This document shows, in pieces, positions 4,150 through 30,077 of a stretch of 64,000 nt of DNA. Made by a program: the position numbers and the translations under genes. The stretch's first letter is position 1. Each line of letters starts with the position of its first letter. Under the pieces are notes generated by a model. The model saw nothing but the letters and a program-made list of their open reading frames with translations. It ran no database searches and was not told where the DNA came from. The stretch comes from a virus. Taxonomy: Duplodnaviria > Caudoviricetes. The stretch covers positions 64,001 through 128,000 of IMG/VR virus record IMGVR_UViG_3300031867_000006; one strand, written 5' to 3'.

Positions 4150-6006
4150 TTAGAATAATGACATAATTAAAGCTTCGTCTATATTTTCTCTACTCGGTAC
4201 ATACGCTGTACGCTTGTTAAGAATCTTAGACTCCACATAATATCCATCTATACAATACTTGGTTTCAAGCTGGAAATCCTTATACTGATTAAATAAGAAT
4301 CGTTCCTTGCCCTCAGGTGCTGGAAGAATCATATTAACTTCTTTGATACCTTTTATATCAGAATCATATTTAGCCTTGACTGTTGCAAGCTCACTAAGTA
4401 TTCCAAGTTTTAACCCAGTGAAATCGACTTTCTTGAAGTTCTCATCGAAATCTATCTGATCTTCTGTAAGCATAGGCTTTCCAGTAAGTGCTGTATAGAA
4501 GAATGTATTATCTACAGTCTTATTAGTCCTATAAGCTTCATAGACTTTCATAAATCTATGAATATCTCCAACAAACTCATACTCTGCTTCTAGATAATAA
4601 TCAGCAACTTCTTTATGAGAGAGTATTGTGAGATGACCCTCTTCATCAATTGCAATGTACTTATCTGATACTACATCTGGTGAGAATAAATACTGGGTTG
4701 GATCTATAGTCTTATTATACTTATTAGTATGAACCTTCATGATGAATGGTTTCTTTATACCAGCTATAGGATTCATTGCTGCTAGAGACATAGCCTCATG
4801 TTTATATAATTCCATATACTGCTCATCATCATACCTTACGGGATACTGTATTTTCCATTCATATGATAAGTCATCTGCTACAGAGATGATGCCCACACAA
4901 ATTGGCGTAAGGTGATCCGGAAGATCCTCTCTAGAACCATTGCAAATGAATACATAAGCGTCTTCTTTCTCACCATCCTGATCTGGCGTATAAGCTTCTA
5001 TAGCATCCTGAATAGATTCAGCCCATATATCCTCAGTAACATCTCCGGGATTACGCTGGTCTGATATATACCAATGCTGAATTTTATCTATATCAATAAG
5101 TTTCAATCCGCATGGTGTAGATATAATAATATTATTCATTCCTTCCATTACATCGGCATCTTCTTTGAGATATTTAGCAACCTGAGAGGTGTCTTTAATA
5201 GAAATATTATATCGCTTTGCCGCAGATCTAATCCTTCTAGCTAATAATGGTTTCTTATCTTCACTAGCATGACCAAACAACTTTATGGCAGAATTTATAT
5301 GCTTTTCAGAATCTAATGGGAACTTGCGATCTTCAGGAATACCGAACGCAGAATCTGGTAAATTAGATCTCTTTGTCGCAGCCTCATTAAACTTATGATC
5401 TGTCCAAACCTGATAATTCGCTTTAGTAAGCTTATCCTTATGGGATAAGAGATATTCCAAAGTAAATGGTTTATTACCATATACATTAATATTGTCTTGC
5501 CCATTGGTTGTGAAGTACATAGATAAATCATGGATATGACCATGAATATTCAGATCCACTCCAGGAATCTGCTCCACATTCTCAGGTCTATGCGAGAAAT
5601 ATACTCTAACTCCATCAAAGTCATGAATAAGATATTCATATATAAAATCGAATCCACAGTTTTCATAGAAATCAGAACCCTGCATACCATCATGATTGCC
5701 TATAATAAGCAGCTTCTTTCCAGGTATTGACTTCATGATCTCTTGAGCCTGAGCAGAATCTTCTTCATTAGCATATCTAAAGCAGATGTCGCCTAAGAAA
5801 AGAAAGACGTCATTGTCTTTAATATTCTTCTTACACCAAGAAACCATATTCTGTATATTTATCTTATTCTTACCCTTGCCGTATTTATGAGCATTTATAT
5901 GCCAATCGGAAGATAAGAAAATTCTATCTTTAGGCGTATTATCTAAAAGATAATGAATATCATTACTATCTATCTCTTCAGGAGTATTCAAATTAATACT
6001 ATCCAT
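4150..6006 (-). CDS. multidomain protein: calcineurin-like metallophosphoesterase plus probable virion domains
   Basis: SDWH, LGD, GNHD, HRP and HGHIH motifs; then an RSNLPDSAFGIPEDRKFPL module; late-type promoter at 6033-6044. Confidence 0.75.
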   Translation of the reverse strand: MDSINLNTPEEIDSNDIHYLLDNTPKDRIFLSSDWHINAHKYGKGKNKINIQNMVSWCKKNIKDNDVFLFLGDICFRYANEEDSAQAQEIMKSIPGKKLLIIGNHDGMQGSDFYENCGFDFIYEYLIHDFDGVRVYFSHRPENVEQIPGVDLNIHGHIHDLSMYFTTNGQDNINVYGNKPFTLEYLLSHKDKLTKANYQVWTDHKFNEAATKRSNLPDSAFGIPEDRKFPLDSEKHINSAIKLFGHASEDKKPLLARRIRSAAKRYNISIKDTSQVAKYLKEDADVMEGMNNIIISTPCGLKLIDIDKIQHWYISDQRNPGDVTEDIWAESIQDAIEAYTPDQDGEKEDAYVFICNGSREDLPDHLTPICVGIISVADDLSYEWKIQYPVRYDDEQYMELYKHEAMSLAAMNPIAGIKKPFIMKVHTNKYNKTIDPTQYLFSPDVVSDKYIAIDEEGHLTILSHKEVADYYLEAEYEFVGDIHRFMKVYEAYRTNKTVDNTFFYTALTGKPMLTEDQIDFDENFKKVDFTGLKLGILSELATVKAKYDSDIKGIKEVNMILPAPEGKERFLFNQYKDFQLETKYCIDGYYVESKILNKRTAYVPSRENIDEALIMSLF

Positions 6007-6064
6007 TTTAGTTTCCTCCTTAATTAATATTTTATTAAATTGTCCAAATTGGGCTTAATTACAA

Positions 6065-6100
6065 AAAATAATAGACCCTCATAAAAGAGCCTATTATTTT
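6065..6100 (-). terminator. intrinsic terminator closing the Cas7-like/array transcription unit
   Basis: AAAATAATAG...CTATTATTTT inverted repeat with internal CTC/GAG pairing, T-run on minus strand. Confidence 0.65.
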
Positions 6101-6644
6101 AGTACAGCGCCTCGCTATACTCCACCGAACTCATAGTTACTGAACAGCACCACACCCTGCTTTACCGTAACAGAGCATTACAGTAATTCGCATTACTTCA
6201 CCCCACCACCACGGCACTTTACTCTACAATACCGTACCTATACTATAACCTACTCCACAGCACTCCTCCTTTACAATACGCTACGGGACATTACTCTGCC
6301 CGGCCATACCTTCGCACTACTCTAATTGACTACACATTACTTTACCTAAACCCCACGAAACATCACAGCGGAAGACCACACGATACCATTACTTTACGTC
6401 ACATTGTGAAACTAAACTAGACTTAGTCAAAACGTCGCAACAGCATACCGCATAATACTGAACAATACCGAAACACAACTCCACAGCAATGTACGCCACT
6501 ACACTATACCATTGCTACACACTACTTTGCCTTACTTTGCCTTAACTACACCAGGCCGAACCGTACGAAACTATACCTATACTTCACGTAACTCTACGAT
6601 ACTGCACCATAACAGAACTTCACTCTATTATACAACACCATTAC
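6101..6644 (-). ncRNA. pentamer-periodic (GYNNN)n array punctuated by GYNNNG hexamers; putative guide-RNA array of the adjacent Cas7-like protein
   Basis: Parses without gaps into 92 pentamers (80 end in AC/GC on + strand) and 14 hexamers (CNNNRC on +) at 6166, 6207, 6238, 6269, 6310, 6346, 6387, 6428, 6469, 6510, 6541, 6577, 6608, 6639; no ORF of 60 aa or more. Confidence 0.8.
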
Positions 6645-6651
6645 AAAGTAA

Positions 6652-7290
6652 TCAGTCTTCGATGATCTCATAAGTGAATCTACCATATGAGCCATTGCGC
6701 CACTGGCCGAGTCCATTATACTTACCGAAATCAAGCCATTCGTATACTGCCTTCTCAAGCTTGTCATTCAATAGTCTGATAACAAACTCTGCTGTTGCTC
6801 CTTCGTGGATCATTTCGCTATTAGCGAGAGATATACGAGGACCCTGCGCTGTCTCGGCACGCAATGATCTCTGAAGATTATCCATCTCTCCATCATATGA
6901 GATAGGTATCTTGCGAAGCGCAGCATCAGCATTAAGATTACCATCTTTGTCAGGCCCATAGACGAATACCATACCATCTATATATTTCTTATGGGCTTTG
7001 ATGCTGGCTGACGCGTTCTTCTCACCAAGCAGCTTAAGAATGCCGCAGGCATGCTTGAAGAACCCGCGGATCTGGTAATCCCAAAGCAAGGGGTTTCCAT
7101 CTTCATCACGAAGGAATACTGTTTTGCCCTTACGCTCAACTTCCTCAGTACCTAACGCTTCGATCTCTTCTTGCTTATTAGGAGCATCGGGCGCATTACT
7201 AGCAATATACTGACTATAGATGTCAGGATCGCTAGGTGCTGAGCCAAGAACTGGTGTTGTAAAGGTTATTCTAATCTTGATATCTTTCAT
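6652..7290 (-). CDS. stand-alone Cas7/RAMP-like RNA-binding protein
   Basis: N-terminal strand IKIRITFTTPVLG, helix QIRGFFKHAC and C-terminal Gly-rich loop GLGQWRNGSYGRF typical of RAMP/Cas7 proteins; AGGAGG RBS; no other cas genes in window. Confidence 0.8.
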   Translation of the reverse strand: MKDIKIRITFTTPVLGSAPSDPDIYSQYIASNAPDAPNKQEEIEALGTEEVERKGKTVFLRDEDGNPLLWDYQIRGFFKHACGILKLLGEKNASASIKAHKKYIDGMVFVYGPDKDGNLNADAALRKIPISYDGEMDNLQRSLRAETAQGPRISLANSEMIHEGATAEFVIRLLNDKLEKAVYEWLDFGKYNGLGQWRNGSYGRFTYEIIED

Positions 7291-7334
7291 AATTTTATCC
7301 TCCTTATATTTAAGATATCTATATACTACAATAT

Positions 7335-7346
7335 TATAATATATAA
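7335..7346 (-). promoter_or_regulatory. early-type phage promoter motif (TTRYATAWTATA on sense strand) upstream of the Cas7-like gene
   Basis: Same motif at 1389, 13891, 14773, 18443, 22440, 26154, 32944, 36985, 47862, 49648, 57335, 58637, 60070, 63239, each upstream of a minus-strand gene. Confidence 0.7.
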
Positions 7347-7368
7347 CTCAAATATCTTAAATTCACAA

Positions 7369-7535
7369 GGCGATGAATTGTTGGTTAAGTAGCGCTACAT
7401 ACAGGACTGGATCTGCAGAATACTATGATAATCAATACAAATTACAAATGTTTTGTTTAATAAATCCTGGATCTAATAATTTGGCTGGTAGAGAAATGGC
7501 TAATAATTTCCATAATGATGGAATATATTACGGCG
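7369..7535 (+). other. solo variable cassette (GGCG-ATG...TAC-GGCG)
   Basis: Encodes MNCWLSSATYRTGSAEYY...GIYYG with the same boundaries as array cassettes at 28253-30077. Confidence 0.8.
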
Positions 7536-10185: not shown

Positions 10186-10346
10186 GGCGATGAGTTGGTG
10201 GTTTAGAGGGGCTACAAAAACTCTTACTAATTATAATCCACTTAATGGTTTCTTTGGAGTAGAAAATTGTAAGAATATTAATAATGCTGATTATGCTTGG
10301 GCTGCATATGATCCTAATAATGGTAATAAAATAATGAATAACGGCG
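10186..10346 (+). other. solo variable cassette (GGCG-ATG...AAC-GGCG)
   Basis: Encodes MSWWFRGATKTL...KIMNNG, same architecture as array cassettes; lies between divergent late promoters. Confidence 0.8.
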
Positions 10347-27800: not shown

Positions 27801-28197
27801 AGATTCATACTTCAATAATTTATATAGCAAGGTTCATATATCTTCTACAAATAAGACAGAGCCTGTTGTTATAGATGGCGAATTCTATCAGTGGTATCCA
27901 ATGATACGTCAGAATGATATTGGTGAGAATACATCTAATAGATTTGTAGATACTTGCAATATCTGCAATCTATACTGTAAAGGCATGGGTGCCGATTACG
28001 ATGGTGACACGATATCAGATAAGCTTATGTTTACCAATGAAGCTAATGCCGAGCTTGAGAAATATGTAAATTCCAACGCTCAGTTTATAGCCTTAAATGG
28101 TGTAAGCTTAAGATACCCTTCCATGGAGGCAGTCCAAGCTATATATAACCTTACACTTACATTAGATCAGAATCAATTAACAGATCCAAAGTTCTAA
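27801..28197 (+). CDS. phage RNA polymerase beta' subunit, exon 2 (catalytic motif)
   Basis: GADYDGD (NADFDGD equivalent); spliced product 550 aa. Confidence 0.9.
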
Positions 28198-28205
28198 TAT
28201 TAATA

Positions 28206-28240
28206 CCCTAGGCTTATAGCCTAGGGTTATTCTTTTATTT
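28206..28240 (+). terminator. CCTAGG-family intrinsic terminator
   Basis: CCCTAGGC-TTATA-GCCTAGGG followed by T-rich tract. Confidence 0.75.
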
Positions 28241-28252
28241 TAGCTTAATACT

Positions 28253-30077
28253 GCGATAACATTGGCTACGGTTTTAAGATCAATGGCATCCTCTTCATCT
28301 CCAGAAGTTTGTATGGTTGGCTGGTTAGATTCTGGTAAAGATAGGCCTTGGTCTGCAGCATTACATGATAATGGTAGTACATTATATAATTACGGCGCGA
28401 TGGAATGGTGGTTAAGGGGAGCTGCTGATCATGGTTTATCAATACCTCCGCATATAACAAATGGAGTATTTACAATGGTATCTAAAGATGCTAGATCTGA
28501 AAGGGTTAATGCTTATACTCAAAGTAATATAACTAATGGAGTTAAATACGGCGATGTATTGGTGGAGTAGAACTAGCACGTACTATCCAGAAGCCCCTAA
28601 TCATTCTGATAATAAAATTAGATTTAATGCTAAAGCTGATGGTGAAGAACATATATGGACAATTCCAGCTTATAGTTGGAATGGTGTTGATGTAGTAATT
28701 GTCGGCGATGAATTGTTGGTGGTTTAGATCAGGATGTTATGTATATATAACTGGAGGTGGTTGGCCAGCTAGGTCTGATAAATCTGCATTCGTTATGTAT
28801 ATGAAAGAAAGGAATCCACCAGTATGGGCTCATTGTGCTAATTTTACATATGTATATGATATTAGTACACCATGTAATTACGGCGATGGAATTGGGATGG
28901 TTATTTAGATCATTTTATGATGTAAGGACACAACCTTCAAATTATTTAAATAAAGATGGAACTGGATATTGTGTATATTGCCAAAGCTATAATAATACTT
29001 CTGGATTAAATTGGATTGCTTATCCTATAAATAAGCCAACTGATAGATATTATTACGGCGATGAGTTGGTGGGAAAGATCTGGCTATAAGCCTGACAAGG
29101 CATCATTTTGTTGTTCAGGATATTATAATACACCTAATGGAACACCTCAAGGTACTAATGCTGCAAAACATAGTGGTACTGGACAATTATTTAATCTCGG
29201 CGATGGAATGGTGGTTGAGGACTTGCCCAAATCATGATATAAATGCTGGTGCTTTAGAAAATAATAAGTCTGTTATAAGTTGCGTTTGGGCGGATGGTAA
29301 GAGTTATTATGCTATACAAGGCGGTAATGGCTATTATGTAAGAAATTTCGGCGATGGATTATTGGGATAGATCTGCTTCATCGAAAATAGTGCAATGTTA
29401 TTAATATTTTCAACAGATGATAGATTTATAAATACAGGTTGGAAAGTTCCGGCATATAAATTCCCTAGTGGTATTGATTGTATTTACGGCGATAATTTGT
29501 TGGTTAAGAAGTGCAGATTATAAAAGTATACCGTGGTATGGCACTCAATATGATAATAAAGATGTGAGTTTTATTTATATTAGCCCAGATGGTTCAGTAA
29601 ATTGTACTGTTGCATGCCATGGATCATCTAGCCCTAGTAATTACGGCGATGTATTGGAGAACAAGAACTAGTTCATCTCAAGCTGGCGATTGGGCTACAG
29701 ATAATAAAAGTTGTTATATGTGTATTAATGGTACTTATGTAATTAAAGCGGTGAATACATATGCTGCAACTAGTGTCGGCGATAACTTGGTGGAATAGAT
29801 CCGCTGCTGGAAACCATTGGAAATATAAAACTATTGGATTTACTGAAACTACTATTGATGGAGTATCAGACTTTAATTATGCGTGGAGATGGGAATCTGC
29901 TGAACCATATCAAATAATATATCACGGCGATGGATTGGTGGACAACTAGTGCTATGTCTGTATATGCTAATATTTATCATAGTGGTAGCACTGGTAAAGA
30001 TTATTGCCCTATAGATAATAAAGGTGAACCATCGTATCAATTTGCTGGTAATTGTGGATATAATATAGATTTCGGCG
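28253..30077 (+). repeat. array of 12 variable coding cassettes joined at CGGCG
   Basis: CGGCG at 28393, 28549, 28703, 28881, 29056, 29198, 29349, 29487, 29644, 29777, 29925, 30073; each unit reads (M/I)x(1-3)WWxR(S/T/G)-like...(Y/F/V/L/H)G. Confidence 0.9.

Follow-up and report, generated by a model that had tools for sequence, protein, structure and literature searches.

This locus raises the question of why a phage should carry, next to a small gene, a long tract of five-nucleotide repeats whose phase slips forward by one base at regular intervals, and of what the slips might mark. The tract was analyzed within the window, by which we mean the whole stretch of 64,000 nucleotides that was examined, taken from a 165.8-kb virus record. 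The part of the window from 6000 to 6700 falls between two minus-strand genes, and the tract itself occupies positions 6101–6644 of the minus strand, where periodicity and parsing resolve it into ∼105 G-Y-N-N-N repeats arranged in 14 units (U1–U14). It starts at 6644, 8 nt past the stop codon of a 212-aa gene (6652–7290; protein P0001), and directly after 6101 it is closed by a predicted intrinsic terminator consisting of a 16-pair stem and then a T-run (6065–6100). On the 5′ side of the gene, the sequence reads as an A/T-rich region (7291–7365) with the ribosome binding site AAGGAGG 7 nt before the ATG, presumably the promoter region of the gene–array unit. All of these elements lie on the minus strand, and the locus as a whole spans ∼6065–7365.

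Beyond the terminator, with its own ribosome binding site at ∼6020, lies the gene for a 618-aa calcineurin-like metallophosphatase/DUF6582 fusion protein (4150–6006, minus strand), and the neighbor on the other side is an Ig-like protein whose gene, located upstream, has a hairpin at ∼7570–7545. The metallophosphatase-DUF6582 gene is not conserved beside relatives of the 212-aa gene. Within the 165.8-kb record the array is unique (score 89.5, with the next-best tract at 10.2), the record holds only one gene of the P0001 kind, and no 5-nt-periodic tract was seen in the intergenic stretches 7369–7535 and 10186–10346.

The periodicity of the array was measured as base autocorrelation on the minus strand, which reaches 0.44 at lag 5 versus 0.20–0.29 at lags 1–4 and 6–9, in a tract that is G/T-rich and C-poor on that strand (GC skew −0.45 to −0.57). 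Across 105 pentamers, position 1 is G in 90% and position 2 is T in 83% or C in 15% (98% together), with positions 3–5 close to random (1.74, 1.96 and 1.87 bits, respectively). An earlier note on this DNA had claimed that the 5-nt phase shifts by exactly +1 fourteen times, always through a GYNNNG hexamer. In accordance with this, dynamic-programming parses of 6644–6101 give 103–105 units, of which 13–15 are 6-mers, the register slips by +1 at 13–14 places with no spacer between units, and every one of the 14 hexamers has G as its sixth base. Their start positions are 6644, 6613, 6582, 6546, 6515, 6474, 6433, 6392, 6351, 6315, 6274, 6243, 6212 and 6171, coordinates from which the spacings listed in the note are reproduced exactly, and the terminal segment of 13 pentamers that it described matches 6165–6101. 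The span it gave, 6166–6644, does hold all 14 hexamers on the minus strand according to the parses, but misses the last unit, with which the array extends to 6101. Three to four boundaries (near 6546, 6433 and 6274, and in the stretch 6468–6428) adjoin pentamers without the G and could shift by a pentamer, and it is there that the parses disagree.

Read in the sense direction, U1–U14 measure 31, 31, 36, 31, 41, 41, 41, 41, 36, 41, 31, 31, 41 and 65 nt. Each of U1–U13 equals (GYNNN)n plus an extra G, that is 5n+1 nt, and the 65-nt U14 has no closing G. The hexamer spacing is highly regular, with an sd of 0.99 units that was equaled in 0 of 100,000 random placements (permutation p<1e-5). The boundaries also differ in composition, as positions 3–5 of the terminal repeats are 83% A/T versus 61% in mid-unit repeats (p 0.013). 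The units also differ from one another, as had been claimed, with a median best identity of 43% at variable positions. U4 (6540–6510) is the only unit resembling others above chance; it is of low complexity and partly duplicated inside (GCAAA GTAAG GCAAA GTAGT; TRF period 10). Folding of the array as RNA gave z = −1.75 and no convincing predicted structure. The array matched nothing in Rfam (E up to 10) or, by blastn, in 50,697 phage records, as would be expected of hypervariable guides. Stop codons are depleted within the variable triplets (observed/expected 0.70), but a control frame is similarly depleted, so the depletion is no evidence of codon phasing.

The protein encoded next to the array bears on what the array might be for. 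An AF2 model, Foldseek, VIA-align and profile comparisons together present P0001 as a predicted single-RRM RAMP protein of the Cas7/Csm3 kind. The model is confident (pLDDT 90), Foldseek ranks type VII Cas7 and Csm3 highest (E 7e-9 to 1e-6), and VIA-align gives Z 11–13 to Csm3, Cmr4 and type VII Cas7. Compared as a profile of 49 members, the family matches Csm4 and, with E 1.8e-4, the type VII complex chains that PDB names ‘Cas7’, through a C-terminal glycine-rich loop; P0001 compared with Csm4 gave a sub-threshold match only. The family was not found in Pfam, PHROG or PADLOC, and its members carry no source annotation beyond ‘hypothetical protein’. It is nonetheless large, comprising 1,686 clusters at 50% identity (E<=1e-3), or 312 clusters in a word-indexed search, with most of its members in phages and prophages of the gut and rumen. 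Distant homologues (24–26% identity, E 5e-5 to 1e-4), likewise annotated as hypothetical proteins, were seen in Aquificae Conch Spring virus and Hydrogenobaculum phage 1 (BK013345.1; KP282676.1 / NC_028651.1), and this sequence similarity suggests that the family extends to thermophile viruses.

A lone small RAMP protein beside a five-nucleotide tract recalls VIPR, an RNA-guided system for silencing DNA that is related to CRISPR and was made known in bioRxiv preprints of 2026 (10.64898/2026.04.26.720920; 10.64898/2026.04.26.720927). As described in the text of the first of these, a VIPR system consists of a ∼20-kDa RAMP protein (Vipr) and vrRNAs of 9–16 YNNGG repeats, whose NN letters pair with dsDNA while each third target base is skipped; the effect is transcriptional silencing directed against rival phages and satellites (10.64898/2026.04.26.720920). 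The same text distinguishes seven VIPR types, treats a vap gene beside vipr as typical, not obligatory, and reports experiments on type II, which has GGY/NN repeats and tailed guides; in Escherichia phage SUSP1, which carries a type II system, the tracts are stated to be transcribed and to co-purify with Vipr (10.64898/2026.04.26.720920). In the structure, one protomer occupies each repeat and the protein forms a right-handed helix with six subunits per turn, or five when DNA-bound; G1 is contacted by H17 and D177, G2 by R138 and W178, and Y3 sits in a pocket that includes R179 (10.64898/2026.04.26.720927).

We located the SUSP1 locus in KT454805 through its GGYNN tracts. On the minus strand of that record, vipr lies at 28474–29061 and vap1 at 28031–28471, and of the four tracts, one lies upstream and the others lie downstream; all have 10–15 repeats in unbroken register and then a structured tail. 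The residue numbers of the 195-aa ORF (C173, D177, W178, R179) agree with the structure paper, which identifies this ORF as Vipr. In the SUSP1 genome, the P0001 family escaped both tblastn and an HMM search, and only profile comparison succeeded: with hhalign, the family profile aligns to the 195-aa SUSP1 Vipr over its full length (probability 83%, E 9e-6, 173 aligned columns), and the 146-aa neighbor protein of SUSP1 gave no alignment to the same profile. By profile alignment and predicted structure, then, P0001 is a remote homologue of SUSP1 Vipr with a Cas7/Csm3-type RAMP fold, and both proteins have the G-loop motif G-x-G-x-W-R...G-R-F. SUSP1 W178 and R179 align with the near-invariant W197 and R198 of the window family, and the G1 contacts H17 and D177 align with S17 and Q196. 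At the position of that first G, the window repeats have G in 16% (entropy 1.87 bits) versus 65% in the SUSP1 tracts as parsed, and the replacement of H17/D177 by S17/Q196, as placed by this remote alignment, would fit the missing first G of GGY.

The two loci thus share a full-length Vipr homologue and 5-nt repeats that lie on the gene's strand in flanking intergenic DNA. They differ in the guides themselves. SUSP1 has GGY/NN repeats with two variable letters and 10–15 repeats per guide, whereas the window has GY/NNN and 6–8 per putative guide. SUSP1 has four vrRNAs that are separated, each with a ∼40–60-nt tail, and vap1 is present; in the window, the guides would abut, without tails and without vap. 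The window consensus G-Y-N-N-N is therefore not the canonical GGY/NN, but corresponds to the YNNNG type, one of the alternative repeats (NNNGG, YNNNG, NNNNG) that the Methods section ‘VIPR type classification’ lists (10.64898/2026.04.26.720920), so the departure from GGY/NN is no bar to VIPR membership by that classification.

The arrangement of the window array has its closest counterpart in what the preprint calls ‘staggered vrRNA arrays’, presented in fig. S18 with a legend that mentions ‘boundaries of individual processed vrRNAs’ (10.64898/2026.04.26.720920). Compared with that legend, the window array shows the same hallmarks: guides that would abut with a 1-nt offset and no spacer, at 13–14 +1 shifts, with a lone small RAMP gene beside a long 5-nt tract that has one or two fixed letters, all carried by a phage. 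The likeness is drawn from text and legend. The preprint text gives no numbers for the staggered layout, and in that text sRNA-seq confirmation extends to ribozyme-interspersed arrays and single-vrRNA systems only, the staggered layout not being among them (10.64898/2026.04.26.720920). What the window and its relatives add is the 5n+1-nt unit (mode 31), the identity of the extra base as G, A/T-rich boundary repeats, whole-unit indels and the lack of a conserved vap gene.

A further comparison is with the Csm3/Cmr4 (Cas7) backbone of type III systems, which has the same fold (Z 11–13), likewise forms a helical filament measuring RNA in fixed steps, and carries crRNAs similar in length to the putative guides (31–41 nt). 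The type III step, however, is 6 nt without sequence preference, in contrast to a 5-nt step with fixed letters in the window, which moreover has no CRISPR repeats separating its guides and no Cas5, Cas6, Cas10 or Cas1-2. Searches with Pfam, PHROGs and PADLOC found no other cas-like neighbors, and tandem-repeat analysis found no CRISPR repeats, only the 5-nt tract. Because the predicted Cas7/Csm3 fold of P0001 comes with homology to SUSP1 Vipr, we read the locus as a VIPR system, and we consider it probable that the locus is a phage VIPR system in which the hexamers are the boundaries of ∼14 guides of 31–41 nt.

The DNA around ∼120 related loci was retrieved from IMG/VR, from GTDB genomes and from ENA/JGI contigs. 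At 85 of 85 loci and at 36 of 38 loci from metagenome-assembled genomes (MAGs), a 5-nt-periodic array adjoins the gene, with its G-rich strand being that of the gene; the two remaining MAG loci are short contigs. The array usually lies downstream of the gene, with about one third of loci having it upstream, and arrays on both sides of vipr were seen at L091, L102, L111, L115 and L116. No neighbor gene is conserved across 45 Vipr clusters; the commonest family occurs at 11 of 45 and is absent from the window. The array at L001 reaches the contig end (5541 of 5550), and the contigs of L002 and L005 end no more than ∼150 nt past theirs. Assemblers may break at or near such tracts, and array lengths in metagenomes may be underestimated.

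The tracts of relatives have the grammar in common without any alignable sequence. The 97 distinct arrays that were parsed contain 1202 hexamers, 94% of which have G as their sixth base, and the mean period is 5.146 ± 0.021. Slip intervals peak at 5, 6 and 7 repeats (253, 334 and 220 of 1075, or 75%), the modal guide having 6 repeats, and their sd over the 97 arrays is 2.3 versus 6.3 for random placement. Family-wide, the first and last repeats of units have A/T fractions of 0.77 and 0.79 versus 0.63 in the middle (p 2.5e-70), and the terminal hexamer frequently reads GCAANG in the largest clade. These A/T-rich end repeats imply that the junction is a semi-conserved signal beyond the mere insertion of a base.

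Arrays of related phages were also compared with each other, the check that the earlier note had proposed, and the outcome favors it: indels are whole units or single pentamers, and cassettes are swapped. When coded by unit, related arrays resemble CRISPR spacer maps. L084 lacks four consecutive units found in L039 and L079, and one additional 26-nt unit occurs in L079 and L084; L078 has three more units than L016 and L013 two more than L011; L022 and L027 have ten units in common, followed by different blocks that recur in L085 and L058. In pairs at least 98% identical, the gaps measure 124, 93, 67, 52 (34+18), 31 and 26 nt, corresponding to 1–4 whole units, or exactly 5 nt. Several gaps fall exactly on junctions, and others lie about a dozen bases off, inside similar unit ends, as would be expected from recombination between such ends. 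The pairwise comparisons are partly non-independent, and more diverged pairs align messily. Indels of this kind indicate that the units behave as modules. Together with VIPR membership and the semi-conserved boundary repeats, these whole-unit indels lend support to the view, first put forward in the earlier note, that the hexamers delimit ∼14 guides of crRNA-like size, as far as sequence comparison can speak to it. Substitution rates in near-identical units at positions 2–5 (8.8, 9.5, 11.9 and 13.3%) do not discriminate between a two-letter and a three-letter code.

From these observations a mechanism can be proposed for the VIPR reading. Transcription would probably run from the A/T-rich region 5′ of vipr to the terminator, yielding one precursor. 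One Vipr protomer would occupy each repeat, gripping the G and the Y, and, as in SUSP1, the fixed letters would be held and the variable letters displayed for pairing with dsDNA, such that rival mobile elements are silenced; a DNA-silencing function of the window locus is suggested by analogy with the SUSP1 experiments. Each guide would consist of (GYNNN)n, n being 6–8, and a closing G, so that an anchoring G flanks every variable triplet. Since n triplets anchored on both sides need n+1 Gs, such a guide would have 5n+1 nt, and the next guide would begin with its phase shifted by one base. Put differently, the junction would restore a full G-G-Y, possibly setting the register of the next guide. 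A guide of 6–8 repeats would correspond to about one turn of the published Vipr filament, and guides would be separated from each other at the GG junctions. Under the published two-letter rule, 6–8 repeats fix 12–16 bases, few for specific targeting, versus 18–24 in a three-letter reading, similar to type II guides, and this difference provides a weak argument for the three-letter reading in the window family.

A natural target was established for none of the window guides under any decoding rule tried. Read as three contiguous letters (positions 3–5), U5, U8 and U10 have no exact counterpart in IMG/VR, and the U10 21-mer had no match in metagenome contigs. With two letters and one skipped base, IMG/VR returned 30 matches for U10 and 25 for U8, which by a rough estimate is about chance for 16 fixed bases. 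The third-letter agreement of these matches is at chance level except in one lineage, no second guide matches the loci concerned, and neither 401 sampled Clostridia genomes nor 5 MAGs contained the U8 pattern. Seven decoding rules applied to 250 family guides against 2 Mb of sequence gave no excess over shuffled guides, the only exception being leftover array homology.

One observation on U8 (6386–6346) concerns its variable triplets, which read as codons spell I-V-L-A-D-F-G-L, containing the DFG motif of protein kinases. Five of the 25 U8 matches in IMG/VR (L161, L166, L171, L172 and L176) fall exactly on the DFG motif of related viral ORFs of 600–700 aa, with all 16 first and second letters in agreement and a third-letter agreement of 5/8 at best. 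The one ORF tested, L171:3487–5538, has a Pfam Pkinase match (E 1.9e-9) in which the site falls where the profile would place it. No DFG-type kinase was found in the 165.8-kb record. With the total number of matches at chance level, the kinase match is a lead, not a target.

The readings diverge on how the putative guides would be separated. No vap gene, 3′ tail, pseudoknot, ribozyme or nuclease gene was seen at the window array, which counts against the VIPR reading with separate guides, as do the failure to establish a target, the few bases that 6–8 repeats would fix under the two-letter rule and the remoteness of the homology to SUSP1 Vipr. We regard it as possible, but less likely than not, that the family reads GY/NNN in guides of 5–8 repeats closed by G, with a ribozyme- and tail-free separation carried out by Vipr or a host RNase at the A/T-rich GG junction. 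The array could instead stay uncut, as a long RNA with ∼105 Vipr protomers in which the extra G is a register break and the segments are independent target-binding modules. A single terminator closing the whole array would suit such an RNA, as would the lack of a ribozyme, tail or processing enzyme between units, and unit-wise evolution fits uncut segments equally well. The semi-conserved A/T-rich boundary repeats, on the other hand, resemble a recognition site, and the legend of fig. S18 speaks of the published boundaries as those of ‘individual processed vrRNAs’ (10.64898/2026.04.26.720920). Weighing the two sides, we regard an uncut array as unlikely.

Explanations that dispense with guides altogether fare worse. 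The array might act as DNA, as a protein-wrapping, origin or packaging element presenting a G every half helical turn, and twice the mean period, 10.3 bp, is indeed near the DNA helical repeat. Such an element leaves the strong strand asymmetry (the GC skew given above) unaccounted for, as well as the placement of the tract on the gene's strand, where it abuts a Cas7-type RNA-binding protein and ends in a terminator. Unit lengths of 26–46 nt are not predicted by any fixed helical geometry, and the homologous SUSP1 tracts, according to the preprint text, are transcribed and co-purify with the protein (10.64898/2026.04.26.720920). We therefore consider a DNA element highly improbable. We give still less credence to the idea that the +1 slips are functionless and simply reflect errors of replication or duplication that a simple repeat tolerates. 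The general proneness of short tandem repeats to slippage is all that speaks for it, and it is opposed by the regular spacing in the window (the permutation test above), by the inserted base being G at every hexamer of the window and nearly always in the family, by the recurrence of the same grammar in arrays without sequence similarity, and by the window units not being mutual copies. Several other candidates, namely a ring binder resembling TRAP or Hfq, an RNA ‘tape measure’, a coat of the nucleocapsid kind, a DNA element acting through curvature and an anti-CRISPR decoy, were dropped in view of the Cas7-type fold of P0001, its homology to SUSP1 Vipr and the mechanism published for VIPR.

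Going by the text and legend of the preprint, the locus belongs to the published VIPR kind, in its least documented, staggered layout, which there has been represented by one supplementary figure, with no RNA confirmation reported in the preprint text (10.64898/2026.04.26.720920). The window and its ∼120 relatives give this layout a quantitative and directly testable grammar: (GYNNN)n plus G, with 6 repeats as the commonest number, in which boundary repeats are semi-conserved and units are gained or lost whole. The P0001 family appears to work without an accessory gene or an RNA tail. If all three variable letters take part in recognition, the published code of two letters plus a skip would not be universal, which would bear on target prediction and on the use of very small proteins as programmable DNA binders. 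Should the GY/NNN reading and the ribozyme- and tail-free separation both prove true, VIPR would have a further decoding rule and a further route of guide maturation besides the published ones.
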